Below are positions 3,998 through 47,696 of a DNA stretch of 64,000 nucleotides, in pieces. Numbering within the stretch: position 1 is the first letter of the stretch; each line of letters begins with the position of its first letter. The stretch is from Nitrosopumilus sp. GTDB taxonomy: Archaea; Thermoproteota; Nitrososphaeria; Nitrososphaerales; Nitrosopumilaceae. The translations under genes were made by a program, and so were the position numbers. The notes under the pieces are model-generated. The model was not told the origin of the DNA. It saw only the letters and a program-made list of their open reading frames with translations, and made no database searches. The stretch is taken from NCBI GenBank assembly GCA_965204345.1, contig OZ241981.1, forward strand, positions 96,001 to 160,000, read 5' to 3'.

Positions 3998-4045
3998 TAT
4001 TTTTTACTGTTATTTTTTACTGTTATTTTTTACTGTTATTTTTTA
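3998..4045. repeat. 13-bp tandem repeat (TATTTTTTACTGT x ~3.7)
   Basis: Exact units at 3998-4010, 4011-4023 and 4024-4036, partial at 4037-4045. Confidence 0.85.
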
Positions 4046-4709
4046 TCATTATGCCCTCTTGGTGTTATCCTTTCCCTAATTATTCAGACATCCCTACAAA
4101 TTGTTGGAAGAAAAATACGAGTTATTTTATGTTGCTTTTAATTTCAGAAGCCGTGTTTTGTTTATTGGTTGTTATAATAAGAAGAATAAAATCCAAGTCA
4201 CAAAATGATTGAATTTTTATCAAACATCAAGACATTACAACCCAAGGTTTCTAGAAATTATCCTACACGCTAGAGAAATCAAACACATCCATGACAGAAT
4301 GATGAGGAGTTTTGCTGAAAAACAGCTATCAGATCATAAAAATCCGCAATAACCATAATAAATTATTTTCTGAGCATTATGATAACTATCTCAGTAGAGT
4401 GATATCTTGAGATCCTATGTTGCCTAAATTATCAGATAAATCATCTGATACAAAAACAGATGCTGAGAATGACTAAAGATGCGACGGCATTCTCTGGAGT
4501 TGATAAAAACTTGACAGAATGCAATAGGCTTGTTTTTGAAACCGGGGGGCCAATTCCACACACGTGCACAGGGTGTCCGTTGTTAGGGTCAGGTGAGCTT
4601 TGACAAACATTACATGTGTAAAACTGTGATGAATCACAATTTCATCCAGCAATGATGAATTGTGTCAGAATCCGATGAAAATATTGACAAAAAATATGGA
4701 AGTGTGGTT

Positions 4710-4946
4710 CTACAGGTTGTGCTTGAATGGCCTTGTAAGCTTGTATCTGCCGTCTTTGATTCTCACAAAGTAGACAGGCCTTTTCTGTGGGTTGCCTTTT
4801 CTGTGCCTAGAGGGGTAACTTGATGCTGCCCTTGCAGAAATGCGGCACGACTTTACCAGGTCAGTTGGATAAAATGGCTCTTTTAACTTCTTTGATTTTA
4901 TCGCCTTTACTATCCTAGAGTAGGTCGGGTGCAAGTTTTTCTTCAT
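4710..4946 (-). CDS. small basic hypothetical protein, possibly winged-helix DNA-binding
   Basis: 78 aa, Lys/Arg-rich, ATG start; the pattern EPFYPTDL...YFVRIKDGRYKL resembles a wHTH wing. Confidence 0.6.
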   Translation of the reverse strand: MKKNLHPTYSRIVKAIKSKKLKEPFYPTDLVKSCRISARAASSYPSRHRKGNPQKRPVYFVRIKDGRYKLTRPFKHNL

Positions 4947-5089
4947 GCAATAACTGCTGTATCATTGCCTTTTTTAGTTTTTGATTTTGCGGCTTTGTTA
5001 ACCTGAGGCAGGTTGCCATCTTGCCTTAATTGCCTGAAGATCTGTTGTTGCCTATCCCGGAATGAACCCAAAACGGTGATGTGAGAGAT

Positions 5090-5153
5090 TCAAGCGACAG
5101 AATTTAGGCGTAAAATTACTGATTTTAATAAACAAAATAAGGCAAAACGCACA
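5090..5153. repeat. dispersed intergenic repeat family 2, copy 1
   Basis: 25-bp exact core AAAATTACTGATTTTAATAAACAAA at 5112-5136 also occurs at 48041-48065, with similar flanks (CGAC.GAATTTAGG... and ...AAGG..A.AC.CACA). Confidence 0.8.
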
Positions 5154-5471
5154 TTGCTAGCTTGCATGATTTACCCTGATTTTTACTGCCCTGTTAAACA
5201 TGGTCCAAAAACATGATGAGTTTGCAGTGACTCGACATGTCAAAAGATGCTGCCAGATGATCAAGTGATAGCAGGCCCAGTAATATGACATCATAGAGAT
5301 ATTTTGTAACAAATTGAGCATGTTCTTTATGATGAATGTTAAAAAGGACTTAGTTATGGATTTGATATGCTCTTTTTAGGTCCTAATAGATCCACAAATT
5401 ATCTTCATAAAGGAGACTGGTATGACTCGTAATTGTTTCAAATTTTCATCTAACATGAAAAGGACTTTTTT

Positions 5472-13840: not shown

Positions 13841-14233
13841 TTATGCCTTGGTAGGATCTCTGCTCAATATGTTTAGCACATGCTCAACAATTTGTTTTTG
13901 ACCGCCTGCATGCATATCTGTCCGTACTGTATCAGAGCCCAAGCTAACAAAAATCAGATTCTCATCCCCCAATGGAAACGTCATACGTGTAATCTTTTCA
14001 AATGCTGCTACTGCGTACAACCCATTGCCTATTTTTGGCCTTAATTCTTTTCTGCCTTTCCAGGCGGTTGCTGCCCTTTTTAGCGATGATGCTGTCTCAT
14101 CTGGGGACAGGTAATTTGTAATTCCTTCTCTGTGGCTAGTTGAGAGAATATTCCCGTCCGTATCTGTGATTATGCTGTGTCTGATGTTTGGGTCCGAATC
14201 CATTATTCTCCTTAAGAGATTTTTAAAATCCAT
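13841..14233 (-). CDS. thaumarchaeal roadblock/profilin-like (DUF6659-like) protein
   Basis: DPNIRHSIITDTDG...KIGNGLYAVAAFEKITRMTFPL pattern; similar to 34553-34918. Confidence 0.7.
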   Translation of the reverse strand: MDFKNLLRRIMDSDPNIRHSIITDTDGNILSTSHREGITNYLSPDETASSLKRAATAWKGRKELRPKIGNGLYAVAAFEKITRMTFPLGDENLIFVSLGSDTVRTDMHAGGQKQIVEHVLNILSRDPTKA

Positions 14234-15243: not shown

Positions 15244-16863
15244 TTGATGAAAAAAAATATAATCATAAAAAATTTTGTCTTTCTGTCTTTTTGTGCCATT
15301 CTTCTTAGTTACGGTTTACAGCCTGCCTTTGCTGAAATTTTCTTTCCATCCACGAATTTCAGGCTTCAAGACAACCCTACTTTTTGTGTAGTTATTCCCG
15401 AAGATGACAATGTTCCTCAAGCGCAAAAAACTAGGTGGGTAAATTTGGCAGAACGTGCAGTATTGGAATGGGAAGCAAAATTAAAGGAAAAAGAAACAAT
15501 TAATCCTGATGTTTGGGACATTAGTGTAAAGATAGTCTCAGAAGATGACTCTAAAAATTGTGGAATTAACATTTCATTTAAAGACAAACCCAAGTTTGAA
15601 GGCACGATTATTGGGGTGTTTTGGTGGCCTCCTGCCTCCATTGAAATTTATTACTTGCAGTTCCAGCTGTGTGGTCTGTTTGGATGTTACAATGATGATG
15701 CTTTCATCTCTGATGATCACGTATTTGTTACTGTTTTACATGAGGTAGGCCATGCTATGGGATTAGATCATTATGTTTCTGATAATTCTGATATTAATTC
15801 ACAATGGAAAACTAGTAACAATGTGCCACCCTCGATAATGATTCCAACAATTCACAACACTCCTAGCATTCAACAAATTACTGATACTGACATTAACAAA
15901 GTTCGTGAAATTTATGGCAGTAATGGATTCAAAGCATTTTCCGTAATACCTGAGCCAAAGCCCGAGCCAAAACCTGAGCCAAAGCCCGAGCCAAAACCTG
16001 AGCCAAAGCCCGAACCAAAACCTGAGCCAAAGCCCGAGCCAAAACCTGAGCCAAAGCCCGAGCCAAAGCCCGAGCCAAAACCTGAGCCAAAACCTGAGCC
16101 AAAGCCCGAGCCAAAGCCCGAGCCAAAGCCCGAGCCAAAGCCCGAACCAAAACCTGAGCCAACACCTGCACCCCCAGCCGTAGAACCAATTCTTCCTGAC
16201 AGGCCATTTCTTGAAATAGAGGTCTCCAAAAAAATAATCAAGGTTCAAAACCACATACGTGATACAGTCAAAATTTCAGGAATTATATCTGGTGACAAGT
16301 TGCTACAGGGGCATCCTGTAATAATATCTGTATATTATCCTGATCAATCTGTAGAAATATTAAAAACATTAACTACACGCAGTGGCTACTTTGAAACATT
16401 ATTGATAATTGATAAAAATTCAATTCGGGGAGACTATCAGGTTTCAGTAAGCTATTTGGAGCATGTTGACAAAAACATGGATGTGTTTTTCAAAGTAATT
16501 GATGATACGGTTGATTCTGATGATGCTGTATTGGATGCATCTTCTGATAAAGAACAAAGTATCTCCACAGAATCTGTTTCTGGTTTGTTCTCCGTGTCTG
16601 TTATTCCTGAGTGGTTTAAAGATAATGCAAGATGGTGGGCTGATGGTCTTTTGGATGACGATACTTTTACTTCCGGAATGGAGTTTTTGCTTTCAGAGAA
16701 CATAATTACAATTCCAGAGTCTGATGTTGTTTTATCAAATCAGCCTATTCCTCCTTGGGTAAGATATAATGCTGGATTGTGGGCTGATGGTCTTTTGGAT
16801 GACGATTCCTTTATTTTGGATTTGAAATATCTTGTTGAGATTGGAATTATAAAAATAAACTAA
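15244..16863 (+). CDS. secreted matrixin-like (M10/M57 metzincin) protease with PEPK linker and thaumarchaeal C-terminal IPxW repeats
   Basis: Signal peptide, intact [11 protein letters not shown], Met-turn SIMIP, (PEPK)17, two IPx[14 protein letters not shown] repeats. Confidence 0.88.
15949..16164 (+). repeat. 12-bp coding VNTR, (PEPK)x17 followed by PEPT
   Basis: CC(T/C)GA(G/A)CCAAA(G/A) units counted from 15949. Confidence 0.95.
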
Positions 16864-29880: not shown

Positions 29881-29952
29881 TGTGAAATCTTGATGTTTCC
29901 AGAAAGCCATCTGCTAATCATTCTTAATAACAACGCATACCCACACTATCTA

Positions 29953-31506
29953 ATGGTTAGAATCCTACTGCTAGGGTTTTTGGTTTTGACCACCGTAATG
30001 GTGATAATGGCGGTGCCAGCATATGCTGCATACCCTGTCTTGCCATTGGATCAGCATCAGTCAGACATATCAATGGATATGATTCAGTGCAATGACGGCA
30101 AGCTTCTGATGATGACTTTTGCAGGCAAGCCAGTATGCGTAACTAGTGATTCTACAATGCAGTTAGCAGACAGGGGCTATGCCACGGCATACACACCAGA
30201 AACATCCCAAAAAGCCAATGAATCCTTGAATGAAAAGATCACAAACCAGACAGACACGCATGTATTTACTGACAAAGAAAAGCAGATTATTGCTGATTAC
30301 AGAGAATCTTCAATGTTATCATCAGAACCTTCAATTCTTATACACATGTATTCTATAGAACTACCAACATTGCCCAAAGTGGGTCAGACTGCCTTGGTAA
30401 ATTTTACTGGTGTTTATACTGATAAGGTAAATTTTGAACCATACAAGGAACCATTCACACTAAAAGTATTTTCTGGTACTGAGGACAAAGTTCGGTTTCT
30501 TGATGACGCCGTAACAAACGCAGGAACTGATGATCCAGATGTATTTGTGCCATTTGATAATGATGTTGGATATGTGGTAAATGATCCCGTGCTAGGTAGG
30601 GCTTATACCGTACTGGTTACTGTAGAAATTCTAGAAGAAGGATTTATTCACATTAATGCACTTAGATTTAATGGTGCAGAAAATAATATTGGTCGCTACT
30701 TTGCGATATCTGATGAGCATTCTATGATCATAGGTGAGTATATTGATGAGGGATACACTTTTCTGGATCACACCATTGTAGATTTGTACTCTAATATCGA
30801 ACATTTTACACGTGAGGATAAAATTCTCTCGACGGCAACACATGCTAGATCTCTGCGAGTTTGGGGTGAGATGTATAATATGGAACTTTACCCAGATACT
30901 GATGGTGTAATTCAGGCACTTACTAATATGCGTCTTCCATTGGATGATGCAGAACGTGTTTTAAATTATACAAATTTTACGTCAGCGCAAGTTGCCAACA
31001 TCTTGGAAAGATACAAATCAAATCACACTACATCATCAGATGTATCGTCATCCTCTGACCAGCCATTGACTCAGTCACATGGATCTCATGACGGCTGTGG
31101 CAACTATAGGATATTTTTAAAAAAAATCAGCAGTGGTGATATAGTCTGTGTGTTTGTTCCTACTGCTGAAAAACTGATAATTCGAGGCTGGGGTGATATG
31201 ACTCATGAGCCTCATGATATTGAGATTAGTTTTGAAACATTGTACAAGATTGAGCCAGGGCAGGTAAGAACTCCTTTTAATCGTGACTCGGCTGCTATGC
31301 TTGAAGGTGCAAATGAACAATTTTATGATTATTTACATAAATGCAGGCTTGGCACATCTATTGCAAATGAGGATATTCCACCTGAGGGCATTCCAGGAGG
31401 ATGCATCATTTATTTCCCAACTCTACACTTTGAGTTTAAGGATTTTGTATCGATACTGCGCCACAATGACACATTAAGCTGGTTGGATCGTGATAAATTT
31501 TCATAA
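29953..31506 (+). CDS. secreted hypothetical protein with two Cys-pair modules
   Basis: Signal peptide MVRILLLGFL...AYA; IQCNDG...KPVCV...LADRGY and GC...IVCV..PTAEKLIIRGW. Confidence 0.78.
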   Translation: MVRILLLGFLVLTTVMVIMAVPAYAAYPVLPLDQHQSDISMDMIQCNDGKLLMMTFAGKPVCVTSDSTMQLADRGYATAYTPETSQKANESLNEKITNQTDTHVFTDKEKQIIADYRESSMLSSEPSILIHMYSIELPTLPKVGQTALVNFTGVYTDKVNFEPYKEPFTLKVFSGTEDKVRFLDDAVTNAGTDDPDVFVPFDNDVGYVVNDPVLGRAYTVLVTVEILEEGFIHINALRFNGAENNIGRYFAISDEHSMIIGEYIDEGYTFLDHTIVDLYSNIEHFTREDKILSTATHARSLRVWGEMYNMELYPDTDGVIQALTNMRLPLDDAERVLNYTNFTSAQVANILERYKSNHTTSSDVSSSSDQPLTQSHGSHDGCGNYRIFLKKISSGDIVCVFVPTAEKLIIRGWGDMTHEPHDIEISFETLYKIEPGQVRTPFNRDSAAMLEGANEQFYDYLHKCRLGTSIANEDIPPEGIPGGCIIYFPTLHFEFKDFVSILRHNDTLSWLDRDKFS

Positions 31507-34552: not shown

Positions 34553-34918
34553 TTGCCTGACAAAATCTATGACTATTCAAAAATCTGTGAATCTGTATTT
34601 TCCATAGATCCTAAAATTCGATTTGCAGGCGTGATTAACGAGCGTGGTCGTTTGGTTGCAGGTGGAATGAAAGAAAACGTTGAACCGCTAGAAAACGAAA
34701 AGGATGATGAAATGATCTTCATGGAGCTTGCATTACGTGTAAAAATGCGTAAGGAATTTGATAAGCAACTGGGACAAGTCAATTTTGCAATGGCTTCTAG
34801 AGAACGTGCACTTGCAATCAGTGTCTTAATCAATAATGACATTCTGTATGTTGTGTCTGAACCTGACTCTGATTATGGCATACTGCCTAAGAAAATCATT
34901 GACATAGTCCACTCTTAA
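34553..34918 (+). CDS. DUF6659-like (roadblock/profilin-like) protein
   Basis: IDPKIRFAGVINERGRLVAGG...LRVKMRKEFDKQLG. Confidence 0.82.
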   Translation: MPDKIYDYSKICESVFSIDPKIRFAGVINERGRLVAGGMKENVEPLENEKDDEMIFMELALRVKMRKEFDKQLGQVNFAMASRERALAISVLINNDILYVVSEPDSDYGILPKKIIDIVHS

Positions 34919-35338
34919 TCTTAATTTTATTTCTGTTTCTGGGACTGTTTGCTAACGCATATGTTATTTTGTATGTGGTGTATTACATGCATATGACAGC
35001 AATTACATGAATAAAACATGATGTAATATTGATCCTGAGATTTTTTCTGCTGTGTGTTAAAAAATAAAGGCTCCATCTCTCTGTATTTCCAACTGGGGGT
35101 TCATGTGCAAATGTTAATTTTTATAATCAGACTCTGGATTGTTAATTTTCATAGCCAAGTCTCAAATATGCTTCTAGTCTGCTTGGCCAATTGTGTCAAT
35201 AGATGAGCCAATTGTATGCATTTTTTGGCGCATTTTTCATATTTATTCTCAAAATTGATTTTGCGTTTCCTTTGGCTTTGGAAAACAACAACATTTGATA
35301 GCACTTCTAATATAGTATGCCAAAAAACCAACAAACCA

Positions 35339-36612
35339 ATGCGGATTCTGCTTGCCATATCCATTGTATCACTTTTTGGAGTTGCCAGTGCATATGCTGA
35401 GATTGCCTCCCCCTATGAGCAGCTAAAATCCGGCGTGTCACTATATGAAATCCAGTGTGAGTATCAAAAGATTCTACTGGAATCTCCTAGGAACAACAAG
35501 CCGGTATGTGTGAAAAGTGATACGGCAGACATACTGGTAGAGCGGGGCTGGTTCATGATAAAAATATTTGATGAGATGCCAACTGCTGAGTTACCAGTTG
35601 ATGAGCTGCATATAGAAACTACCATCAACCAGACAGAGGGCAGCTCATATGCTGTCTCTGATCCTGTACAGACAGAGACATACTATCCTCATCTAGGAGA
35701 CCCGTATGTTATGTCATTCTATGGTACTACGACCGCATAGATCTATCTGGAATCAAACCACTTCCTGAAGGTGTCTACCTTCCCACAACCATAGAAAACT
35801 ATGAGCGCATCATGCAAAAAATACTTGATGGTATAGACGACAAACTGATACTTCCAAATCTGGAAGGTCCAAGATATGACTATGTTATTGACAACACCTT
35901 GCATGGGGGTACAATACTAGGAGAACGGCTGAACTACACATACTATACAGAACAAGGAAACATTATCAGGCCATATGGCAATACTAAAATAGAATTGATA
36001 ATATTAGAACCTGATAAAATATTCAGGTCAGATTATTTGGATGAAAAATGGCACGAATATGACTCCCTTGACCGAAAGGATGAGCTTGCATTTGCCAAAA
36101 ATCTAACGGCAGGTCCAGAAAAATTTATACAAAACTTTGTGGAAAAATCAGGACTGCCAAGTATAGTAATGACGCAGCATGATTTTGACAATTCATTGAT
36201 ATATCTTGAAAATGGTACAATAGAAATGCGAATGGAATGGGATAATGTGTACATGTATTTTCTGTATCAGGAAGAACCTCACTTTACTCCGCTGTCAAAA
36301 GATACGATGCGTCAATTAATGCATCAGTTTGCTATTGATAATGCACATGTAATAGATCGAGAAGAGTGTGATGGCTTTGTCCTATACGATAACAAGGATG
36401 ATATCAGAATAGTTAGGTTTAGCTACTTTCTAGCAGGAATTCCCATATATCAAGCAGATGTGGGAATTTGTGATCCAACTTGGAATCATCCTACAAATGC
36501 CTTATCTATTAGTATGGAGGGCATTACAGGAGAGATTGGCTGGTTTTCTGGCCCAAAAATAGATGACTGGATTGACAAGATAAACATTCCAGAACATGCC
36601 AAGGTAAGATAA
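35339..36612 (+). pseudogene. variable secreted protein A, copy 1 (frameshifted near 35735)
   Basis: ORFs 35216-35740 and 35812-36612 are the N- and C-terminal parts of the 423/425-aa paralogs; one base is missing before ATAGATCTATCTGG. Confidence 0.85.
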
Positions 36613-36728
36613 AACAGATGTGAATATTGTACATTACACCTCAAAAAGCAAAGCTTGATCATCCATATATGGCCAAAAGCAGACTCTCAGGATACAAATT
36701 TTGATATACTACTCCTTTTGGACAAAGT

Positions 36729-37241
36729 GTGATGGCTAATTTGCTTGCTCTGCTGCTAGCAGTCTTTGCAGTTATGGGAATTGGGCACGCATATGCACAG
36801 ACATCTGAACTGTTTGTACCCTTGCCAGATAGTGAGCTAGAATCACTTGATGTTTTTGAGGGCTATAATTTTGAATCAATGATGGTAGCAATAGATACGC
36901 AAATTTTCTCATCAGAACATCTAAGCATTACAATATTTGGCGAATCAACAACCTTCACAAAAGACTCTGTGGAGTATTATGAAGATGGCAACTATCTGTG
37001 GATAGGTTCCAATGATGATCAAGAGACAGCAATGTTTGAAATAAGCGGTACAAAAGCAGTGGGAGTAATAGACACATTAAACAAAACGTTTCAGGTGTTT
37101 CCTGTAGAGGCCACAACACATGAAGTGTATCTCATTGATCAGTCCCAGTTTCCACCAGACACTGTTGTACCACCTGGTGCAAGTGGTGAACAATCCTTTG
37201 ACAGAGATGAGACATATCACTTAATAGCACTTCTAATATAG
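36729..37241 (+). CDS. B' copy 1: signal peptide plus metalloprotease-prodomain-like region only
   Basis: Near-identical to aa 1-161 of the 1674-aa protein, then the junction-derived tail TYHLIALLI*. Confidence 0.8.
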   Translation: MMANLLALLLAVFAVMGIGHAYAQTSELFVPLPDSELESLDVFEGYNFESMMVAIDTQIFSSEHLSITIFGESTTFTKDSVEYYEDGNYLWIGSNDDQETAMFEISGTKAVGVIDTLNKTFQVFPVEATTHEVYLIDQSQFPPDTVVPPGASGEQSFDRDETYHLIALLI

Positions 37242-37264
37242 TATGCCAAAAAACCAACAAACCA

Positions 37265-38536
37265 ATGCGGATTCTGCTTGCCATATCCATTGTATCACTT
37301 TTTGGAGTTGCTAATGCATATGCTGAGATTGCCTCCCCATATGAGCAGCTAAAATCCGGCGTGTCACTATATGAAATCCAGTGTGAGTATCAAAAGACTC
37401 TGTTGGAATCTCCTAGGAACAACAGGCCTGTATGTGTAAAAAGTGGTACGGCAGACATACTGGTAGAGCGCGGCTGGTATGTGATAAAAATATTTGATGA
37501 GATGCCAACTGCTGAGCCATCACCTGATACAACTCTGCCTGTAGCAACTACTAGCAACCAGACAGAAAGCAACTCAGATGCTGTCTCTGATCCTGTACAG
37601 ACAGAGACATACTATCCTCACATAGAAAATCCGTATCTTGTTTCACGTAGTAGTCACGGCGCTATAGATCTATCTGGAATCAAACCACTTCCTGAAGGTG
37701 TTCACCTTCCCACAACCATAGAAAACTATGAGCGCATTATGCAAAAAATACTTGATGGCATAGATGACAAACTGATACTTCCAAATTCTGAGGGTCCAAG
37801 ATATGACTATGCTATTGAGGAGTTTCCCGGATATCCAGAAATAGGAAATAAACTGAACTATACATACTATACAGAACAAGGAAACATTATCAGGCCAGAC
37901 GGCACTACTAAAATAGAGCTGATAATATTAGAACCTGATGAAATATTCAGGTCAGATTATTTGGATAAAAAATGGGACGAATATGACTCCCTTGACCAAA
38001 AGGATGAGCTTGCATTTGCCAAAAGTCTAATTGCGGGTCCAGAAGAATTCATACAAAACTTTGTAGAAAAATCAGGACTGCCAAGGATAGTAAAGATGAA
38101 CTCTGATTTTGACCGTTCATCGATATATCTTGAAAATGGTAAAATAGACATGCGAATGCAATGGAATAACGTGTACATGTATTTTCTATATAAGGAAGAA
38201 CCTCACTTTACTCCGCTGTCAAAAGATGCGATGCGTCAATTAATGTATCAGTTTGCTATTGATAATGCACATGTAATAGATCGAGAAAGGTGTGATGGCT
38301 TTGTCCTATACGATAGCAAGGAGGATATCAGAGAAGTTTCAATTATATCCTATCGAGCAGGGATTCCCATATGGGAAGCAGATGTGGGAATTTGTGATCC
38401 AACTTGGAATCATCCTACAAATGCCTTATCTATTAGCATGGAGGGCATTACAGGAGAGATTGGCTGGTTCTCTAATCTTATGATAGATGACTGGCTTGAT
38501 AAGATAAACATTCCAGAGCATGCCAAGGTAAGATAA
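37265..38536 (+). CDS. variable secreted protein A, copy 2 (Cys-pair module, P/T linker, PepSY-like C-terminus)
   Basis: Signal peptide ...ANAYA, SPYEQ...IQC...PVCV...LVERGW, C-terminal PLSK..MRQL...GIPIWEADV...MEGITGEI. Confidence 0.88.
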   Translation: MRILLAISIVSLFGVANAYAEIASPYEQLKSGVSLYEIQCEYQKTLLESPRNNRPVCVKSGTADILVERGWYVIKIFDEMPTAEPSPDTTLPVATTSNQTESNSDAVSDPVQTETYYPHIENPYLVSRSSHGAIDLSGIKPLPEGVHLPTTIENYERIMQKILDGIDDKLILPNSEGPRYDYAIEEFPGYPEIGNKLNYTYYTEQGNIIRPDGTTKIELIILEPDEIFRSDYLDKKWDEYDSLDQKDELAFAKSLIAGPEEFIQNFVEKSGLPRIVKMNSDFDRSSIYLENGKIDMRMQWNNVYMYFLYKEEPHFTPLSKDAMRQLMYQFAIDNAHVIDRERCDGFVLYDSKEDIREVSIISYRAGIPIWEADVGICDPTWNHPTNALSISMEGITGEIGWFSNLMIDDWLDKINIPEHAKVR

Positions 38537-38651
38537 GATAGATATGAATATTGTCATTACGCCTCAAAAAGCAAAACTTGGCCATCCATATATGACCAAA
38601 AACAGATTCTCAGGATGCAAATTTTGATATACTGCCCCTTTTGGACATGGT

Positions 38652-39164
38652 GTGATGGCTAATTTGCTTGCCCTCCTACTAACAATCTTTGCAGTTATGA
38701 GTATCGGACACGCATATGCACAGACATCTGAACTGTTTGTACCCTTGCCAGATAGTGAGCTAGAATCACTTGATGTTTTTGAGGGCTATAATTTTGAATC
38801 AAGGATGGTAGCAATAGATACGCAAATTTTCTCATCAGAACATCTAAGCATTACAATATTTGGAGAATCGACAACCTTCACAAAAGACTCTGTGGAGCAT
38901 TATGAAGATGGCAACTATCTGTGGAAAGGTTCCAATAATGATGAAGAGACTGCAATGTTTGAAATAAGCGGTACAAAGGCAGTGGGAATAATAGACACAT
39001 TAAACAAAACATTCCAGGTGTTTCCTGTAGAGGCCACAACACATGAAGTGTATCTCATTGATCATTCCCAGTTTCCACCAGACGCGGTTGTACCACCTGG
39101 TGCAAGTGGTGAGCAATCCTTTGACAGAGATGAGACATATCACTTAATAGCACTTCTAATATAG
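38652..39164 (+). CDS. B' copy 2: signal peptide plus metalloprotease-prodomain-like region only
   Basis: Same length (170 aa) and same junction as 36729-37241, with scattered substitutions. Confidence 0.8.
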   Translation: MMANLLALLLTIFAVMSIGHAYAQTSELFVPLPDSELESLDVFEGYNFESRMVAIDTQIFSSEHLSITIFGESTTFTKDSVEHYEDGNYLWKGSNNDEETAMFEISGTKAVGIIDTLNKTFQVFPVEATTHEVYLIDHSQFPPDAVVPPGASGEQSFDRDETYHLIALLI

Positions 39165-39187
39165 TATGCCAAAAAACCAACAAACCA

Positions 39188-40465
39188 ATGCGGATTCTGC
39201 TTGCCATATCCATTGTATCACTTTTTGGAGTTGCCAATGCATATGCTGAGATTGCCTCCCCCTATGAGCAGCTAAAATCTGGCGTACCACTCTATGAAAT
39301 CCAGTGTGAGTATCAAAAGATTCTGCTGGAATCTCCTAGGAACAACAAGCCTGTATGTGTGAAAAGTGATACGGCAGACATACTGGTAGAGCGCGGCTGG
39401 CATATGATAAAAATATTTGATGAGCTGCCATCTGCTGAGCCATCACCTGATACAACTCTGCCTGTAGCAACTACTGGCAACCAGACAGAAAGCAACTCGG
39501 ATGCTGTCTCTGATCCTATACCGACAAATACATACTATACTGACCTAGGAGACCCGTATGTTATTTCATTCGGTACTACTTCCTATGGCATAGATCTATC
39601 TGGAATCAAACCACTTCCTGAAGGTGTCTACCTTCCCACAACCATAGAAAACTATGAACGCATCATGCAGAAAATACTTGATGGCATAGACGACAAACTA
39701 ATACTTCCAAATTCTGAAGGTCCAAGATATGACTATACTCTTCAACCCCTTCCTGGAGGTCGCGAAGTAGGAAAACGGCTGAACTATACATACTATACAG
39801 AACAAGGAAACATTATCAGGCCAGACGGCGCTACTAAAATAGAGCTGATAATATTAGAACCTGATGAAATATTCAGCTCAGATTATTTGGATAAAAAATG
39901 GGACGAATTTGACTCCCTTGACCAAAAGGATGAGCTTGCATTTGCCAAAAATCTAATAGCAGGTCGAGAAAAATTCCTGCAAAACTTTGTAGAAAAATCA
40001 GAACTACCAAGAATAGTAAATACGAACCATCTGCAGGTGGAATCACTGGCGTATCTTGAAAATGGTCAAATAGAAATGCTAATGCAATGGGGTAATGTGT
40101 ACATGTATTTTACATATAAGGAAAACCCTGACTTTTTACCGTTGTCAAAAAATACGATGCGTCAACTAATGCATCAGTTTGCTATTGATAATGCACACGT
40201 AATAGATCGAGAATGGTGTGATGACCTTGTCATATACGATAGCAAGGATGATGTCAAAAAAATTGGAGTTATCTACTTCCAAGCAGGGATTCCAATATGG
40301 GATGCAGCTGTGGGAACATGTGATCCAATTTTGAATCGTTCTGCAGATGTCGTATATCTTCACATGGAGGGTATTACAGGAGAGATCGGCTGGTTTGAGG
40401 AGGGGCAAACAGAAGACTGGATTGACAAGATAAACATTCCAGAACATGCCAAGATAAGAAGATAA
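39188..40465 (+). CDS. variable secreted protein A, copy 3
   Basis: 425-aa paralog with the same framework and different variable segments. Confidence 0.88.
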   Translation: MRILLAISIVSLFGVANAYAEIASPYEQLKSGVPLYEIQCEYQKILLESPRNNKPVCVKSDTADILVERGWHMIKIFDELPSAEPSPDTTLPVATTGNQTESNSDAVSDPIPTNTYYTDLGDPYVISFGTTSYGIDLSGIKPLPEGVYLPTTIENYERIMQKILDGIDDKLILPNSEGPRYDYTLQPLPGGREVGKRLNYTYYTEQGNIIRPDGATKIELIILEPDEIFSSDYLDKKWDEFDSLDQKDELAFAKNLIAGREKFLQNFVEKSELPRIVNTNHLQVESLAYLENGQIEMLMQWGNVYMYFTYKENPDFLPLSKNTMRQLMHQFAIDNAHVIDREWCDDLVIYDSKDDVKKIGVIYFQAGIPIWDAAVGTCDPILNRSADVVYLHMEGITGEIGWFEEGQTEDWIDKINIPEHAKIRR

Positions 40466-40578
40466 AACAGATATGAAATTGTCACTACACCTCAAAAAGC
40501 AAAACTTGGCCATCATATATGACCAAAAACAGTTTCTCAGAATGTAAATTTTGATATACTGTCCCTTTTGGACAAGGT

Positions 40579-43500
40579 GTGATGGCGAATTTGCTTGTCC
40601 TTCTCCTAACAATCTTTGCAGTTATGGGAATCGGCCACGCATATGCACAGACATCTGAACTGTTTGTACCCTTGCCAGACAGTGAGCTAGAATCACTTGA
40701 TGCTTTTGAAGGGTATAACTTTGAATCAAAGATGGTAACAATAGATACGCAAATTTTCTCATCAGAACGTATAAGCATTACAATATTTGGCCAATCAACA
40801 ACCTTCACAAAAGACTCGGTAGAGCATTATGATGATGGCAACTACCTGTGGATAGGTTCCAATGATGATCAAGAGACTGCAATGTTTGAAATAAGCGGTA
40901 CAAAGGCAGTGGGAGTAATAGACACATTAAACAAAACGTTTCAGGTGTTTCCCGTAGAGGACACAACACATGAAGTGTATCTCATTGATCATTCCCAGTT
41001 TCCACCAGACACTGTTGTACCACCTGGTGCAAGTGGTGAACAATCCTTTGACAGAGATGAGATAGACCATTTAGTGGAATCATACATTGGAGGATTCAAG
41101 TACGATAGATTTACCGAAGAACTGGTCATAGACGTATTCATAGCCATAACTACTGATGCACTTACCGAATATGGTGATTTCGAACGGTTCATCTCAAACT
41201 TGGTAATACGTAACACAGATAGTACGTATGGATATAACGATATTCCAGTTGAACTCAACCTCGTAGATCGTGATATTGTAGAGGGATATACTGAGACTAA
41301 CAAGTTGAGCAAAGATCTTCGTAAATTCCAAACCTCTGATGAGGGCAACTTGGAAAGAATTCGTGTGTTAATAGAGGAGGAACAGGCAGATATTGCAATA
41401 ATGTTTGTTGCTGGTGATGGCGATAAACGTAAGGAAGGTGATTTGGATAACAAATGTTCTCTAACTGCACAACAGCTTGTTAGAAGTCCAAGTACAGCAT
41501 TTGCAGTGGTGGACATAAAATGTCTTGCTGCACACTCTGCAACCAACGCAATAGGGCGTATGCACGGGGCAGGATATGATATCGACATGGAAAGAAATCC
41601 AATTTTCAGTCATGGTCATGGGTATTATGATGCAGGCATTGCCAGTAGAACAATGATGGCATCAAGTGGTGGCAACTGTAATAATCCAATTACTCAGGCA
41701 GAAGAAACATGTAGGAGAGACAGAGCGTGGTCGGATCCATTCAGAAATTTCTTTGGTACAACCAACAGGGCAGGTGATGATGTCAGCTGGAATGCCAGAG
41801 TAATATTTGCAACAGCACCACACATTGCATCACTGCGAGGACCGGCACAGGCATACGAGGACACAAGACCCACGGGCTTTGTGACACTGCCTCAAAACAT
41901 ACCGCGGAGTGGAAGTCTGGATATTTCTGCAACGTTTAATGAGATTATAAGCCCCAATTTTCCGCTTGATGTCACTATCACAGACGGCTATACGTCAACT
42001 ACCGGAACGATGACCCGTACATCAGATACGACATTTGAATACTCGCATCTGCTTGATGGGGAAGATGGCACATTTTCAATACTGTTTTCAAATGCACGCG
42101 ATATATTTGGAAACCCTGTTGTAAGGACCCCTACCTCAGGAGGCACGGTGACACTTGATGCAAACAACATACCTCAAAGCCCAATATCAGGACCATTCAC
42201 TACCAATTTTAAAGATAATTTTCAAGGAGGGCTATCTCAATGGAAGCTTACAGGATACGGCAGACCAACAACAGCTACTCCTGATGAAGTCATATTCCCG
42301 GCAACAGATACAAATACTGCCAACAAAGTAATGTCATCTAATCAATGTAGCAGAATATGCATGTCCACAATACCTACTTTACTTGATACACGCCAACCAC
42401 TTACAATATCCTTTGATAGATTTGTAGACAAATCCATTAGACAGGACGATGGCCTTTATCTGGAATATTCTGTAGATGATGGAGCAACATGGACTACGCT
42501 TGCCGAATATACTAGCGACAACGACGAGGACACAGACGATTGGGAGCGAGAATACCTCTCTCTGGCAATACCTCAAAGCAGTGCAAAACTGCGTCTGCTA
42601 ATGGACGTATCTGAACGCAGAGGCTTTGTAGAAGTAGACAACTTTAAGGTATACAAGCCTACGCCTGCCGAACCTGACATCATTCTCAAACCCCATCTTG
42701 GCGCAGAGAGAACAAGCATATCATTTAGTTTGATGGAGCGAATTCCATTTAGGCTTGATGCCTCTGACTTTGAGATTAGCCATGGAACAATTATTTCGCT
42801 GTCTCATCGCGCAAACTCTGCTGCAGTAACGATGCGTGTTGCAGACATTCCATATGATACGCAAATTACTGTGACATATACGGGACCGAGCATTCTGATA
42901 AATAGAGCATATCTGAATTCGGGTACCAGCGGAGTGACAAACATAATATCAACGCCTGCTACTATGCCCGAAATAACTGCACCATCAGATAAGACAATAG
43001 AGGCAACTGGCATACTTACGCGTCTTACCGCAGAACAGCTTGGAACGCCAGAGGTAACTGGTAACAGACTCTTGCCTGTAACAAACAATGCGCCAAGGGA
43101 TTTCCCACTGGGTGATACGACAGTAAGATGGACTGTAACTGATGCCTCCCGAAACTTTGCAACAGACACTCAGGTTATAACCATACGGGATACGACTCCG
43201 CCGGTAATACAAAAACCTGCCAATATCCTAGTAGAGGCTGCCTCATCATTTACTGCAATACGGCTGACAAACCCCGCAATATCAGATATCTTTCCTGTTG
43301 CCATAACTAACAACGCACCTGACAGGTTTCCCATTGGCACTACAACAGTTACATGGATTGCCACTGATACGTCAGGCAACTCAGTTAGTATGACCCAAGA
43401 TGTCACAATACGGGATACCATGCCGCCACAGCTTGGCACCATACGTGATATGACATTTGAGGCAACAGGTGTATTGACTCCGCTAAATAGTGCAGACTAT

Positions 43501-45603
43501 GGCATCCCATCTGCAACGGATTTGTCTGATGTTACCATAACAAACAACGCACCTGCATCATTCCCACTAGGCAATACCATAATCACCTGGACTGCAACTG
43601 ATGAATCAGGCAATACATCTACAATAACTAGCACAATAACCATCGAAGATACCACTCCTCCCACAATAGCACAGCCTGCACCAATAACTGTGGATGCCAC
43701 AGCAGTACTTACACCCGTATCAATAAGCGCGCCAGCTGCAACTGACATAGTGGATTCAGACGTTGTTGTTGTAACTACCAGTAATACTGCATCATTTGCC
43801 GTTGGAACACACAACATTGTATGGACTGCAACTGATGATTCAGGAAATACTGCAACTCTCACACAGACGGTGACTGTCCGAGATAGGAATCCTCCGACAT
43901 TTACGCACACGCCGTCTGATATCCTGCTGGTATCCCCTGACATGCAGGGAAGAACAGCCATGTTTGATCTGCCAACAGCCACAGATGCCGAAGATCCCAA
44001 CGTTACTGTGACATGCATACCATCACCATCATCATCACGCATATTCCCAGTCGGCTCTACTACCGTATCGTGCACTGCGCGTGACAGCTCCGGCAATACG
44101 GCAACTATATCCTTTAGTGTAATCATATCAAGAGCTGCTGACAGCCCTCCAAGCATTACGGCTCCTGCATCAAAGATAATCATCACGACAGATCAGAGCG
44201 TGGTTTTGCCACCTCAGGAGCTTGGCACACCCATAGTACAGGACGATATGGATTCTAATCCCGTCATAGCAAACAATGCACCTGCGGCATTCTCTCCTGG
44301 CATCACCAAGGTTGTATGGGTTGCCACTGACAGCTATGGAAACAACGCAACTGCAAACCAGTGGATAGTAATACATGATAACGTATCACCGGGCCTGACA
44401 TTATCTGCTGCAGTTACAATAGATACCACCCAGCAGATAACACCCTTTAACACAGGAGATACCCGGATTGCCCAATACCATGACAACCAGCTACTAGTAA
44501 ATCGCTCATCACCGCCAATCTTTCTTGACAATTACCTGCTTGAGCTAGGAGCCAACATCGTAGAATGGACCACAATAGACCCCAGCGGAAACATTGCACA
44601 GCTAAACCAAAATGTCACAGTCCAAAACAGTACGGCTGTTACTGCAAATCAGATATTCCACGATACCTTTGATGACTCGCTTGACTCTTGGATACAGCGT
44701 CACTATGTTCCACATGAAATTCAAGACGAGCAGTGTGATCCTGCTCCCACTAGCCTGTACGGTGCAAGGTACAGTGAGCAGTATGGCGGCTCGGCCCAGA
44801 TATACCGAGAGCATGACTGCGGGGTGTCTGCATCCATAATGTACAAGACAGTGGACATTGCAGATAAATTTGATAACCATAACTTTAGAATGGTCACAGA
44901 GCACATTCACATCTTAGATGATCCCCAATCACACATACTGTATGTTGCCATTGTCAGCAATACAGGACAGGTACTTGGCACTGCCAAGCTAGTAACCCAT
45001 GATTCAATAGACATAAGGGGCAATCACTGGCAGACCACAATTGTACAGAGTAACGGATTTGATGTGGATCGTTGTCCGTGTGTCATACAGCTGTACAGAT
45101 TTGACAGGGGTGATCAAGTGTTGCCGTTGTACACGCATATTGATAACGTACACCTTGCAATGACTAAACCTGCATCCTCTGGGGCATCTGGTGACAGTGA
45201 AATACCGGCAGACAAGCCAACAAATGTGCTTACAGTTGCAGAGTTGGAAAAGTTCATTGCCGAATCATTATACTATGACAGGATAATCATATCTGCAAAA
45301 TATGTTCAGGATGATGATAGTAACAACAACAGCATCGGCATAGGATGGGACGACATAGATGACAGTTATACGCATGACTATACCGTATCTGCATGGCCAG
45401 TATCCAATCCCGATGATATAACAACACACAGTGTCTTGGCATCTGATAATAATAACAATCTCCAACACATGTTTGCAGGACTAGAACCGGACACCCAATA
45501 CATGGTAACAGTACAGGTAACAGGGGATGATTCCACAAGGACAGGCATTACAATATCAACTAGTCAGGCAAATGCAGAAGATGGAGGTGCCAATACAAGT
45601 TGA
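40579..45603 (+). CDS. large secreted/surface protein: prodomain, catalytically degenerate metzincin (M72/M12B-like) domain, Ig-like and jelly-roll-like domains, ~6 HYR repeats, FN3-like C-terminus
   Basis: IDVFIAIT, ADIAIM, TNAIGRMHGAGYD, RTMMA, WSDP, NARVI..AP.IASLR; HYR signature D(T)TPP.I..P...VEA...FP.G.T.VTW.ATD.SGN; FAGLEPDTQYMVTV. Confidence 0.85.
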   Translation: MMANLLVLLLTIFAVMGIGHAYAQTSELFVPLPDSELESLDAFEGYNFESKMVTIDTQIFSSERISITIFGQSTTFTKDSVEHYDDGNYLWIGSNDDQETAMFEISGTKAVGVIDTLNKTFQVFPVEDTTHEVYLIDHSQFPPDTVVPPGASGEQSFDRDEIDHLVESYIGGFKYDRFTEELVIDVFIAITTDALTEYGDFERFISNLVIRNTDSTYGYNDIPVELNLVDRDIVEGYTETNKLSKDLRKFQTSDEGNLERIRVLIEEEQADIAIMFVAGDGDKRKEGDLDNKCSLTAQQLVRSPSTAFAVVDIKCLAAHSATNAIGRMHGAGYDIDMERNPIFSHGHGYYDAGIASRTMMASSGGNCNNPITQAEETCRRDRAWSDPFRNFFGTTNRAGDDVSWNARVIFATAPHIASLRGPAQAYEDTRPTGFVTLPQNIPRSGSLDISATFNEIISPNFPLDVTITDGYTSTTGTMTRTSDTTFEYSHLLDGEDGTFSILFSNARDIFGNPVVRTPTSGGTVTLDANNIPQSPISGPFTTNFKDNFQGGLSQWKLTGYGRPTTATPDEVIFPATDTNTANKVMSSNQCSRICMSTIPTLLDTRQPLTISFDRFVDKSIRQDDGLYLEYSVDDGATWTTLAEYTSDNDEDTDDWEREYLSLAIPQSSAKLRLLMDVSERRGFVEVDNFKVYKPTPAEPDIILKPHLGAERTSISFSLMERIPFRLDASDFEISHGTIISLSHRANSAAVTMRVADIPYDTQITVTYTGPSILINRAYLNSGTSGVTNIISTPATMPEITAPSDKTIEATGILTRLTAEQLGTPEVTGNRLLPVTNNAPRDFPLGDTTVRWTVTDASRNFATDTQVITIRDTTPPVIQKPANILVEAASSFTAIRLTNPAISDIFPVAITNNAPDRFPIGTTTVTWIATDTSGNSVSMTQDVTIRDTMPPQLGTIRDMTFEATGVLTPLNSADYGIPSATDLSDVTITNNAPASFPLGNTIITWTATDESGNTSTITSTITIEDTTPPTIAQPAPITVDATAVLTPVSISAPAATDIVDSDVVVVTTSNTASFAVGTHNIVWTATDDSGNTATLTQTVTVRDRNPPTFTHTPSDILLVSPDMQGRTAMFDLPTATDAEDPNVTVTCIPSPSSSRIFPVGSTTVSCTARDSSGNTATISFSVIISRAADSPPSITAPASKIIITTDQSVVLPPQELGTPIVQDDMDSNPVIANNAPAAFSPGITKVVWVATDSYGNNATANQWIVIHDNVSPGLTLSAAVTIDTTQQITPFNTGDTRIAQYHDNQLLVNRSSPPIFLDNYLLELGANIVEWTTIDPSGNIAQLNQNVTVQNSTAVTANQIFHDTFDDSLDSWIQRHYVPHEIQDEQCDPAPTSLYGARYSEQYGGSAQIYREHDCGVSASIMYKTVDIADKFDNHNFRMVTEHIHILDDPQSHILYVAIVSNTGQVLGTAKLVTHDSIDIRGNHWQTTIVQSNGFDVDRCPCVIQLYRFDRGDQVLPLYTHIDNVHLAMTKPASSGASGDSEIPADKPTNVLTVAELEKFIAESLYYDRIIISAKYVQDDDSNNNSIGIGWDDIDDSYTHDYTVSAWPVSNPDDITTHSVLASDNNNNLQHMFAGLEPDTQYMVTVQVTGDDSTRTGITISTSQANAEDGGANTS

Positions 45604-47696
45604 ACAGCAAATGGATACGGGTTCTAGCTTTAGTGGCAGTAATGGCCTCTGCAGGCATCCTGTTGCATTCTGCTGAATCCTTTGCTCAAAGCTCAACTGA
45701 CACAAACATGACCACTTCACGCATTACGGCACCGCCCGGACTAGTCCTAACAGCTACATCAAGTAACGGTATATCTCAAAGTAGTGTCAATCTTGGCTCG
45801 CCCACGCTGATTGGCAATCCTACACCAGCACCAGTCATAACTAACAACGCACCTGACATATTTCCAATAGGCGTAACCACCATTGTCTGGACTGCTACTG
45901 ATACTGCCGGAAATACTGCTTCTGCTGCCCAGCGAGTCATAGTCGAGGACAGGGTGGCACCCACCATAACTGCCCCGCCTAGTTATGCCCTTAATGCAGA
46001 TACTGAAACTGTCATACTGCATCAAGACCAGACAGGTTTTGCCATTGCGTCTGATAACATTGATGATACCCCCCTCATAACCAGTAATGTAGACGAGCGC
46101 CGCAGCATTGGAAACTCTACTGTATCATGGACTGTTACTGACACTGCCGGAAACACGGCTACTGCCATCCAGAAGATAGTCATAAAAAATGAAGAGCCCA
46201 TCAAACAAAGTACCACCATACTGCATGACACATTTGATAATAATACTGATCCCTGGAGAAATTGGGGAGCTCCACTATCCATATTCTCCTCACATGACTG
46301 CGTTAGAACAGACACCAACAGGCACAGCCTGGTACACAGCTCAGTTAACAACGGCTCTGCATACTTTGACTTTAACGGTGCATGCGGAGTCGGATATATT
46401 GGCATGCAGAGATATTTCCAGCTTGATGCCCCTGCAGACAATCACGACTTGGAGTTCTCATTTGACTATCTGCACACAGCAGACATTGCCGATTTTAGGG
46501 TGTACCTGATTGGGGATGGAAGTCCGTTTACTCCCTCTTATCCGACATACGTATGGGAGACCACGCAGGAACCCACAGTGGGAACAGAGTTTAACACGTT
46601 TACAGCCAGGGTACCACTGACTGATTTTAGTGAATGCCACTGCCGGTTACTCATATTTGGGTGGGCCCAATCCCCAGACAACTCTACATTCCATATTGAT
46701 AATGTCAAGGTAGTTACGATACCTGTGTCTGGCGGTGGCAGTGGTGCATCAGGTGCCATTGATACGTACACTCATGATTTGAGTACGGTTGAGATTCTTG
46801 ACATGCTGCATGATGGCAATCCAAATACTGTCCTGTTTACATCAAAGCAATATTCTTCATTGGATGGCACCATAACTGTATCATGGGAGGCAGGTGATGC
46901 CACACAGCTGGAACCATACAAAATAGTTATCGCCCCCGTATCTAATCCTGCTGATAAAACAACTGACATCGTAGATGCAGGCACACACAACTATACCTTT
47001 GAGAATCTCAAAGATGACACTGCATACTTTGTATCCGTAGGAGTAAGAGGAGATGACAATACACAAAGTACTATCCTTGTAAATACCGGGGATGAGCTAT
47101 TTGATAGCAATCTTGCGTTAAAGGCATCCCACATTGCAGGCTCTGATACCATAAGCATAGAGTGGTCTGACAGCAACGAAGTTGGTGATGACACATACCG
47201 TATGCAGAGACTGGATGGTGAGAATATAGTAGAGCAGTTTAGTGCTGGAAACGGAACTGTATCTGATACCATACGACCAGAATGGCTGGGTCAGGACATT
47301 TCATATAGAATATTTGAGCGGGTAGGCCAGCACAAGATATACTCTGACATAGTTACAATATCCATGCCATCTGCATTAGAGTCACCTGATAATTTTGGTG
47401 TCAGGGCAATTGAGACTGACCCTTCTCCCACGTCTGATGAGGGCATAATCAGCATACACCTAGGATGGGATCATGTGCCCCTGTTTAGAAATTACTTGGT
47501 AGAGACGTACAGTGCAGCAGACAATTCCTGGAGCAAGATAGAGAAGACCAGGCAAAACTCCATAGTATATGACATGCCTGCAGTCGAGCAGACCATAACC
47601 ATACCATTTAGAATAACGGTTCAGATGGGATCTGCTGCTCCTACAGAACCCGTCGAGATACGACACACCATATGGCTTGACTCACAGGCAAACTAG
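45600..47696 (+). CDS. secreted HYR + jelly-roll-like + FN3 protein, paralogous to the C-terminal part of 40579-45603
   Basis: Signal peptide, two HYR repeats, HDTFD...HIDNV domain, SGASG linker, YTFENLKDDTAYFVSVGVRGDD; TTG start overlaps the upstream TGA. Confidence 0.85.
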   Translation: MNSKWIRVLALVAVMASAGILLHSAESFAQSSTDTNMTTSRITAPPGLVLTATSSNGISQSSVNLGSPTLIGNPTPAPVITNNAPDIFPIGVTTIVWTATDTAGNTASAAQRVIVEDRVAPTITAPPSYALNADTETVILHQDQTGFAIASDNIDDTPLITSNVDERRSIGNSTVSWTVTDTAGNTATAIQKIVIKNEEPIKQSTTILHDTFDNNTDPWRNWGAPLSIFSSHDCVRTDTNRHSLVHSSVNNGSAYFDFNGACGVGYIGMQRYFQLDAPADNHDLEFSFDYLHTADIADFRVYLIGDGSPFTPSYPTYVWETTQEPTVGTEFNTFTARVPLTDFSECHCRLLIFGWAQSPDNSTFHIDNVKVVTIPVSGGGSGASGAIDTYTHDLSTVEILDMLHDGNPNTVLFTSKQYSSLDGTITVSWEAGDATQLEPYKIVIAPVSNPADKTTDIVDAGTHNYTFENLKDDTAYFVSVGVRGDDNTQSTILVNTGDELFDSNLALKASHIAGSDTISIEWSDSNEVGDDTYRMQRLDGENIVEQFSAGNGTVSDTIRPEWLGQDISYRIFERVGQHKIYSDIVTISMPSALESPDNFGVRAIETDPSPTSDEGIISIHLGWDHVPLFRNYLVETYSAADNSWSKIEKTRQNSIVYDMPAVEQTITIPFRITVQMGSAAPTEPVEIRHTIWLDSQAN

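Follow-up and report, generated by a model that had tools for sequence, protein, structure and literature searches.

Proteases are often encoded beside a cognate inhibitor, as in the serralysin/Inh and protealysin/emfourin pairs, and both the PepSY and the propeptide domains of M4 and M36 proteases are inhibitory. YpeB, which consists of three PepSY domains, is the non-catalytic partner of the spore cortex lytic enzyme SleB, the product of a neighbouring gene. In ammonia-oxidising archaea, the closest described protein is an exported "M72 family" metalloprotease of Candidatus (Ca.) Nitrosospongia ianthellae, 2027 residues long and bearing hyaline repeats, which was found in the metaproteome, was called unique among archaea and was reported to be specific to sponge-associated ammonia oxidisers (Moeller et al. 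2019, PMC6790972). Here we analyse a 64,000-nucleotide stretch of a Nitrosopumilus sp. chromosome (contig OZ241981.1 of assembly GCA_965204345.1, positions 96,001 to 160,000 of the forward strand; hereafter the window, whose own numbering is used below). It contains a large gene, B, whose predicted product resembles that protein, preceded by a smaller gene, A. In the window A has been amplified together with the 5' end of B, giving truncated copies of the latter (B'), and B is followed by a paralogue of its C-terminal part (C).

Judged by the published description, B is very likely a protein of the same kind as the Ca. N. ianthellae one: it too would be a giant exported thaumarchaeal protein with a peptidyl-Asp/reprolysin-type metallopeptidase-like head and HYR modules (PMC6790972). 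The sponge link recurs as well, the homologues of B found here coming from Cenarchaeum sp. and Thaumarchaeota metagenome-assembled genomes (MAGs). In contrast to that account, which treats the protein as an active protease, each of the 12 members of the B family examined here lacks HExxH. The passages of PMC6790972 that were consulted mention no upstream partner gene, tandem amplification or truncated copies, unlike what is seen here. In the literature searched (the supplements of PMC6790972 aside) we found no account of B as a pseudo-enzyme, of its conserved partner A, of the amplification of A and B' or of cassette mosaicism, and in PMC6697440 and PMC11812461 the key terms are absent in any relevant sense. 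The statement of an initial annotation of this DNA that no such system had been described therefore needs dividing: a B-type protein was already published as a protease, while the loss of its active site, the amplification and the existence of A as its partner seem not to have been reported before.

The locus resembles the serralysin/Inh and protealysin/emfourin operons in that a small secreted protein, A, is encoded directly beside a metzincin-type gene, an arrangement conserved across genomes. Unlike in those operons, the protease partner lacks its catalytic Glu family-wide, and A, in contrast to Inh and emfourin, is encoded upstream, has 420 residues with three modules plus a WING-49 domain, and is amplified and hypervariable; neither Inh nor emfourin is among the 50 listed Foldseek matches of the model of A3. 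With the PepSY/FTP propeptides of M4 and M36 proteases A may share a PepSY-like alpha+beta architecture. YpeB, the top structural match of the A model (a lead only, at E=0.02), is likewise a multi-PepSY partner of an adjacent secreted protein, although organism, partner and domain context all differ. The alternation of framework blocks with reshuffled hypervariable cassettes at sharp breakpoints recalls Neisseria pilE/pilS, Borrelia vls and Anaplasma msp2. Unlike those, the A copies seen each have the full length of the gene and a start and signal peptide of their own, rather than being silent cassettes that feed one expression site; the organism is an archaeon and is not known to be a pathogen, and neither a recombination machinery nor a switch was identified. 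Lastly, B is comparable to pseudoproteases that act as binding modules: it apparently keeps a protease fold and its surroundings, while its catalytic residues are lost family-wide, a combination that implies a binding role.

Organisation of the array

The seven genes, all on the plus strand, follow the order A1, B'1, A2, B'2, A3, B, C. Repeat analysis (repeat families D1-D10), a three-way MAFFT alignment and the strands of the open reading frames (ORFs) bear out the earlier description of a co-oriented cluster built from a triplicated unit of about 1.92 kilobases. The direct repeats form three tandem units, U1 (35292-37217), U2 (37218-39140) and U3 (39141-41067), at a spacing of 1923-1929 nucleotides (nt) and with nt identities of 83-95% (79-95% when compared block by block). 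U1 consists of 47 nt upstream of A that include the TATA-like element TAATATAG, then A1, a spacer and a copy of codons 1-163 of B; in U3 the B portion runs on into full-length B. An artefact of assembly was considered and ruled out, since the units differ by 5-21% block by block and copies so strongly diverged do not represent an assembly duplication.

The first A gene, A1 (35339-36612), is disrupted. Compared with A2, A3 and the homologue P0007, in which the counterpart sequence is intact, it has lost 1 nt near 35727/35728, and the resulting frameshift leads to a TAG at 35738-35740, leaving a 133-residue N-terminal piece and a separate ORF of 266 residues (35812-36612). A2 (37265-38536, 423 residues) has a signal-peptide-like start, a WING-49 domain at residues 25-72, a linker and an alpha+beta C-terminal part, and A3 (39188-40465, 425 residues) is the copy that was modelled with AlphaFold2. 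Three hypervariable A genes had been proposed, and the patchy, strong variability was indeed found, but only two of the copies are intact. B'1 (36729-37241) and B'2 (38652-39164) are ORFs of 170 residues each. B (40579-45603) encodes 1674 residues: an N-domain and a pseudo-metzincin head come first, followed by immunoglobulin (Ig)-like and Reelin-B-like modules, then by the HYR array and a beta domain that recurs in C, with an FN3-like module after them. C (45600-47696, 698 residues), with two HYR stretches, the beta domain and an FN3-like part, had been called a coupled paralogue of B, and it holds up as such: its TTG start overlaps the TGA stop of B by 4 nt, and tblastn aligns B residues 1193-1661 with C at 26% identity (E=5e-30), with HYR-to-HYR matches besides.

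The head and stalk of B

In its head (residues 165-450, 41071-41928, plus strand) B appears to carry a reprolysin/M72-like domain without a catalytic site. Residues 319-329 (41533-41565, plus strand) read HSATNAIGRMH, in register with the metzincin motif HExxHxxGxxH; His1, Gly8 and His11 are retained, whereas Glu2 has become Ser and His5 has become Asn. The B family was examined in 12 sequences, namely the window B, the homologues P0019-P0026 and the B-like ORFs of three loci (L001-L003) described below; relatives of B residues 1-480 in other Thaumarchaeota show 34-60% identity. Neither HExxH nor HxxEH is present in any of the 12. An aligned site of the form HSxx[N/H/T/S]xxGxx[H/Q], in the exact metzincin register, is found in 10 of them (P0022 is more divergent at the motif and P0026 lacks the motif region). 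The position of the catalytic Glu is occupied by Ser in all ten readable members, and the second His survives in only two (P0021 and P0024). Thirty-one residues past the motif, Met360 is invariant within a conserved RTxMSQS context and is a candidate for the Met-turn.

Several independent leads point to a reprolysin/M12B-type origin and agree with one another, each below significance. Pfam Reprolysin_3 matches three of the nine homologues scanned (P0019, P0020 and P0023) at E=4.9e-4 to 3.9e-3, with 18-21 bits against a cut-off of 22.4. The ten best ESM Atlas matches of residues 165-450 are all Reprolysin_3/4/5 clusters (scores 0.92-0.90, a measure that is uncalibrated for parts of proteins). 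Foldseek with the low-confidence model of B puts Bacteroides fragilis MPII, profragilysin, the ADAM17 zymogen and PAPP-A on top, at E values of 0.04-0.1. A sequence search of the PDB with B residues 1-500 gave no meaningful match. Together, the motif register and these sub-threshold leads support a metzincin-derived domain whose active site has been destroyed. The "dead metzincin" of the initial annotation is in this sense correct as to the loss of HExxH and the metzincin register, but not as to a curated family assignment, since no Pfam or NCBIfam model makes that call.

One intact metzincin is encoded in the window, by a 539-residue ORF (15244-16863, plus strand) about 19 kilobases upstream of the cluster and with no A-like neighbour. 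Its start resembles a signal peptide, its residues 166-176 form an intact motif, the Peptidase_M10 and Reprolysin models match it weakly, and it contains a long (PEPK)n linker; it is a probable active secreted metalloprotease. An hhalign comparison of the B head profile with this M10-like protein found nothing.

Beyond the head, the stalk of B had been described as made of HYR and FN3 modules. The HYR array (approximately 42913-44449, plus strand) is supported by Pfam, by repeat families D7 and D9 and by tblastn of C against B; the HYR model (PF02494, cut-off 21.7 bits) matches six stretches of B (E=3e-39, 133.6 bits) and two of C (32.3 bits). The FN3-like module (residues 1580-1648, 45316-45522, plus strand) stands less firmly, its fn3 match (E=1.2e-4, 22.7 bits) lying below the Pfam cut-off of 25. 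The remaining modules are Ig-like, Reelin-subrepeat-B-like and the beta domain in common with C. The N-termini of A, B, B' and C all have a hydrophobic stretch ending in AxA-type sites, which suggests that the four proteins are secreted.

Conserved linkage of A and B

Three loci were recovered with the B profile, two of which have upstream sequence: L001, from a Cenarchaeum sp. MAG, and L003, from a Thaumarchaeota archaeon MAG (L002 has only 79 nt upstream). In both, a distant homologue of A lies directly 5' of the B homologue and overlaps it, the A-like ORF of L001 ending at 1282 and the B-like one starting at 1279, while in L003 the two ORFs occupy 299-2230 and 2214-5357. The BLASTP similarity to A has an E value of 1e-10 for L003 and 1e-7 for L001. 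Both homologues share the conserved Cys pair of A and a C-terminal DW..R..IP motif, and WING-49 is present in that of L003. Linkage of A to B in other genomes, which the initial annotation had singled out as the decisive test, is thus observed at two out of two informative loci, and A and B appear to constitute a conserved two-gene operon, seen so far in sponge-type lineages. In L003 the B homologue carries FN3 and PKD-like modules but lacks HYR, and it is not followed by a C paralogue; the conserved core therefore seems to be A plus the head region of B, with a variable stalk. Since this only conserved genomic partner of A is protease-dead in every relative examined, the conserved interaction would not be the inhibition of an active enzyme.

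The A homologue of L003 and the A-like protein P0030 carry an extra Cys-containing insertion of about 170 residues between WING-49 and the linker. A search for further loci with the A alignment among contigs of species-representative genomes yielded 26 pattern matches, none of which was confirmed, the genome of the window and its close relatives evidently lying outside that set.

Mosaic variation among the A paralogues

The close A family comprises 17 matches, 69-99% identical and spread over about five contigs. On the contig of the window (2,038,535 base pairs), but outside the window itself, there are six further paralogues, so that this genome has at least nine A genes. In an alignment of 16 A proteins, 246 of 425 columns do not vary, and some of these form unbroken runs of 14, 27 and 12 residues. 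They are interrupted by 12 hypervariable segments, which differ in length and each of which occurs in up to 10 sequence types, as the label "hypervariable" had implied. In the A3 model most of these segments map to the linker, to a loop of low confidence and to hairpins or edge strands of the three structural units.

All four cassette combinations occur in 23 of the 66 pairs of segments, and A2 is identical to P0012 at 207 of 207 positions over residues 218-425 while only 72% identical over residues 81-217. Between A2 and A3, the ratio of nonsynonymous to synonymous substitution rates (dN/dS) is 0.46 outside the hypervariable segments (p=0.0016), indicating constraint, and the synonymous divergence (dS) is 0.34 within those segments vs 0.16 elsewhere. 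This doubling points to the exchange of old, diverged cassettes, and at the level of their sequences the A paralogues are demonstrably mosaics. Positive selection on the hypervariable segments is plausible.

Two of the paralogues outside the window, P0005 and P0003, have the segment at residues 380-392 grown to 25-38 residues, with an extra Cys in P0005, and P0003 has a duplication-like insertion of 23 residues past residue 343; the cassettes thus differ not only in sequence but also in length. A diversity-generating retroelement was considered as a source of variation and set aside, given that no reverse transcriptase domain was found in the 37 window ORFs scanned and that the variable segments contain insertions and deletions, with insertions of up to about 25 residues.

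Origin and constraint of the truncated copies

The boundary of the repeat unit falls within B, after codon 163, and each B' consists of B residues 1-163 followed by a 7-residue tail that reads through into the sequence upstream of A and stops in the TAATATAG element. The 5-nt microhomology CATTT is found both at the breakpoint in B (about 41068-41073) and ahead of A1 (about 35292-35297). Boundary, microhomology and read-through tail together suggest that A and the 5' end of B were twice duplicated in tandem by way of microhomology. In origin, therefore, B' is to all appearances B truncated at a duplication junction and not a purpose-built gene. The initial annotation had seen in it a gene for a free prodomain; this fails as to design, B' being a by-product of where the junction fell (though it looks selectively maintained), and "prodomain-only" is right as a description of extent, the prodomain identity being an interpretation only.

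The N-terminus of B' is signal-peptide-like. In each unit the spacer between A and B or B' has 113-116 nt and is 84-90% conserved, and 47 nt upstream of A, including the TATA-like element, are kept as well, so that both genes of each unit probably retain their own expression signals, if the putative promoters act as such. The spacer also preserves an imperfect 9-bp hairpin (38577-38600 in U2 and 40505-40527 in U3), flagged on the minus strand by a bacterial terminator scan.

Over the 163 common codons, dN/dS is 0.23 in all three pairs of B'1, B'2 and B, nonsynonymous change being below the neutral expectation (p=1e-3 to 9e-5). The private changes of each copy (synonymous/nonsynonymous) are 3/4 in B'1, 6.5/6.5 in B'2 and 10/9 in B, so that the counts of the B' copies resemble those of B. 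Standalone ORFs of the B' type, with 169-170 residues, occur on two other contigs at 91-92% identity; such ORFs have been seen in three very close clusters only (91-100% identity). B' accordingly looks like a maintained gene under purifying selection, a pattern that conversion from functional copies of B could mimic. The N-domain common to B and B' ends in a family-conserved stretch, HE[VI]Y/L.L[DA].S.FPP (B residues about 128-145, window 40960-41010, and the same place in B'1 and B'2); thus B, which has lost its catalytic His-Glu, has a conserved His-Glu in its prodomain-like part.

Domains and predicted fold of A

The N-terminal domain of A at residues 25-72 matches NCBIfam NF058652 (WING-49) with 50.8 bits in A2 and 53.6 bits in A3, against a curated cut-off of 22 bits, and the same domain was matched in all 15 further A-like or N-terminal-only hits tested. 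Many thaumarchaeal proteins that show no other relationship begin with this domain, among them a Nitrosopumilus serpin (P0018) and the product of a 538-residue ORF in the window (29890-31506, plus strand). The latter has two WING-49 stretches (67.5 bits), one near its N-terminus and one at residues about 430-470, and no Pfam domain. When 1.84 billion representatives were searched with the A profile, 92 matches were obtained (11 library representatives at E<=1e-30), about 12 of which cover most of the length (P0030-P0041) and six the C-terminal part only, the rest being restricted to WING-49. Among the A profile matches scanned, no known Pfam domain was found in the A-specific part.

The AlphaFold2 model of A3, built from a 28-row alignment, has a mean predicted local distance difference test (pLDDT) score of 70.7, with 85-91 for WING-49 and a disordered linker at residues 82-123. 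Past the linker it shows three units, each a helix with a sheet of three to four strands, of which the last two reach a pLDDT of 75-97; Cys344 and Cys378 are invariant in A. The best Foldseek match of this model in the PDB is the triple-PepSY C-terminal domain of YpeB (5boi; E=0.02, probability 0.41, template modelling score 0.17-0.25), and YpmB and YycI follow at ranks 25 and 27. Sequence searches of the PDB with A3 and with the profiles "A1" and "A4" gave no meaningful match, and the ESM Atlas gave no usable one for A3. A PepSY-like fold had been proposed for A; YpeB as best match agrees with it, while significance and a Pfam PepSY match are both missing, and we regard this architecture as a weak lead and not as a result. 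Complex prediction for A3 residues 133-425 with B residues 28-450 (own alignments, no controls) scored 0.00 in both runs and weighs neither way.

Interpretation of the locus

We propose that the locus encodes a non-proteolytic recognition module in which B is an adhesin, A its docking partner and B' a supply of extra heads, serving variable surface recognition or evasion; we would give this reading a probability of about 0.5. The conserved core would be a secreted A protein (WING-49, a disordered linker and three PepSY-like alpha+beta units) together with a B gene that starts within or just past the stop of A and whose product opens with a beta-rich domain. The head of B would have lost its catalytic Glu and, in most members, the second zinc ligand, leaving a module without proteolytic activity. 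Microhomology-mediated tandem duplication would then have copied A and the first 163 codons of B twice, yielding the extra A genes and two truncated B' genes that keep the start, signal peptide and upstream spacer of B, after which the A genes of the array, along with at least six others on the 2.04-Mb contig, may have diversified by the exchange of short cassettes among paralogues. B may bind its ligands through the former protease cleft and the stalk. A, possibly once a trans-acting inhibitor or chaperone, may have been kept as a tight docking partner of the N-terminal head of B, its hypervariable hairpins forming an exposed, exchangeable surface, and B' may offer additional free head pieces to the additional copies of A. 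In this scheme we infer the binding of A to B, the exposure at the surface and the selective agent, be it a host or a virus.

A number of results weigh against this interpretation. The translations of B and C have no recognisable C-terminal anchor that would hold them at the surface. With regard to B, no peptidase or metzincin model of Pfam or NCBIfam matches it, no NCBIfam peptidase model was found among 10 homologues scanned, the AlphaFold2 model of residues 1-480 (9-row alignment, pLDDT 40) is unusable for fold assignment, and its Foldseek search returned no match at E<=0.001. With regard to A, Foldseek likewise gave no PDB match at E<=0.001 for A3, Pfam PepSY (PF03413) was absent from A2 and A3 at E<=1 and from 22 A-family hits (16 covering most or part of the length and six C-terminal only) at E<=0.01, and hhalign of the three units and WING-49 among themselves gave probabilities of 0.2-7.9%, i.e. 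no internal repeat. We found no literature on the WING-49 domain. The dN/dS of the hypervariable segments of A2 vs A3, 1.70, is not significantly above 1 (p=0.245), and those segments had been picked by their variability. The synteny of A and B is based on two informative loci only, gene conversion by functional B copies could produce the apparent constraint on B', for which there are few lineage-specific changes, and the broken A1 means that not every copy in the array is maintained.

Other explanations have to be considered. The array might be a recent segmental amplification without function, in which B' genes are relics, A copies are redundant or decaying and the mosaics result from ectopic gene conversion. 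The junction within B at a 5-nt microhomology, the read-through tail of B', the frameshift in A1, the confinement of standalone B' to three very close clusters with 91-100% identity and that of the close A family to about five contigs are all what one would expect of such a by-product. It is nevertheless unlikely in view of the dN/dS of 0.23 for B', significantly under neutral in three pairs, of the intactness of both B' ORFs and the persistence on other contigs of equally long ORFs that are 91-92% identical, of the constrained framework of A (dN/dS 0.46, p=0.0016; 246 of 425 columns invariant in 16 proteins), and of the retention in every unit of the A-B spacer and of the TATA-like element upstream of A, a likely promoter. 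Alternatively, B could be a working exported metalloprotease that serves mixotrophy, with A as its inhibitor or folding chaperone. The HYR-bearing Ca. N. ianthellae protein is, after all, annotated as an M72 metalloprotease and was detected in the metaproteome (PMC6790972), and the window B keeps His at the first and third motif positions as well as the Gly and the Met. With the general-base Glu replaced by Ser in 10 of 10 readable family members and the second His present in only 2 of 10, an active enzyme strikes us as very improbable.

The initial annotation suggested instead that A variants and free B' are secreted to bind foreign metalloproteases of a host or competitor, B acting as a surface decoy. 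A does adjoin a metzincin-derived gene, its best structural lead is a PepSY-type protein, and its hypervariability fits an arms race. BLIP- and YpmB-like folds are grouped with a "possible inhibitory function" in PMC2954215, and the expanded secreted serpins of sponge archaea are read as a guard against host proteases (PMC6790972, PMC7848895); one Nitrosopumilus serpin (P0018) even has the WING-49 domain of A. No result, however, ties A or B' to any active protease: the conserved neighbour of A is catalytically dead in every relative seen, B' is a product of the position of the duplication junction, the PepSY assignment of A is below significance, and the sole intact metzincin of the window (15244-16863) is 19 kilobases away without an A-like neighbour. 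Binding of foreign proteases is therefore, in our opinion, quite unlikely. A more far-reaching version of the recognition module that we favour is combinatorial surface variation in an archaeon, in which recombination among the A paralogues would supply exchangeable specificity subunits. These would attach to B or to a free B' head by way of an interface left over from an inhibitor-protease pair, thereby altering what is displayed to the recognition or phagocytic machinery of an animal host, or to viruses. This version is speculative, and we would rather bet against it.

Genomic context

The window is a piece of archaeal chromosome, as indicated by ORFs for TFIIB, a family-B DNA polymerase, an archaeal threonyl-tRNA synthetase editing domain and deoxyhypusine synthase. 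It also encodes methylmalonyl-CoA mutase, the MeaB GTPase for that mutase and a glyoxalase-fold protein of epimerase type, to which an epimerase role may be ascribed; we take this set to be that of the thaumarchaeal carbon-fixation cycle. G+C content varies between 0.31 and 0.46. A scan for sigma-70 promoters and terminators was set aside as not applicable to an archaeon. Two small DUF6659 paralogues are present, one directly upstream of the array (34553-34918, plus strand, E=5.6e-18) and one at 13841-14233 (minus strand, E=3.8e-4). A 549-residue ORF (1608-3257, plus strand) with weak NERD and DUF4143 matches lies in a stretch of low G+C (0.305 at 2001-4000) and may be a mobile or defence-related insertion.

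Biological implications

Few archaea live inside animals, and ammonia oxidisers are among those that do; this locus offers a concrete, testable candidate for the way in which such archaea are recognised and tolerated. A type of protein that had been flagged as a symbiont-specific "protease" probably cuts nothing, at least in the family examined here, and the gene upstream of B, retained across genomes, is a partner that had so far gone unnoticed. If the reading as a recognition module is true, the argument from an "expanded protease repertoire" to mixotrophy would have to be reweighed. The locus also gives a handle on WING-49, a domain widespread in thaumarchaeal secreted proteins. The pattern of amplification and cassette exchange is one that is usually driven by antagonists such as host immunity or viruses, and the module would, if real, be a rare case of programmed-looking surface variation in Archaea. 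Should even the combinatorial version hold, it would be the first mechanism resembling antigenic variation to be described in Archaea, and would show a dead protease-inhibitor pair put to a new use.

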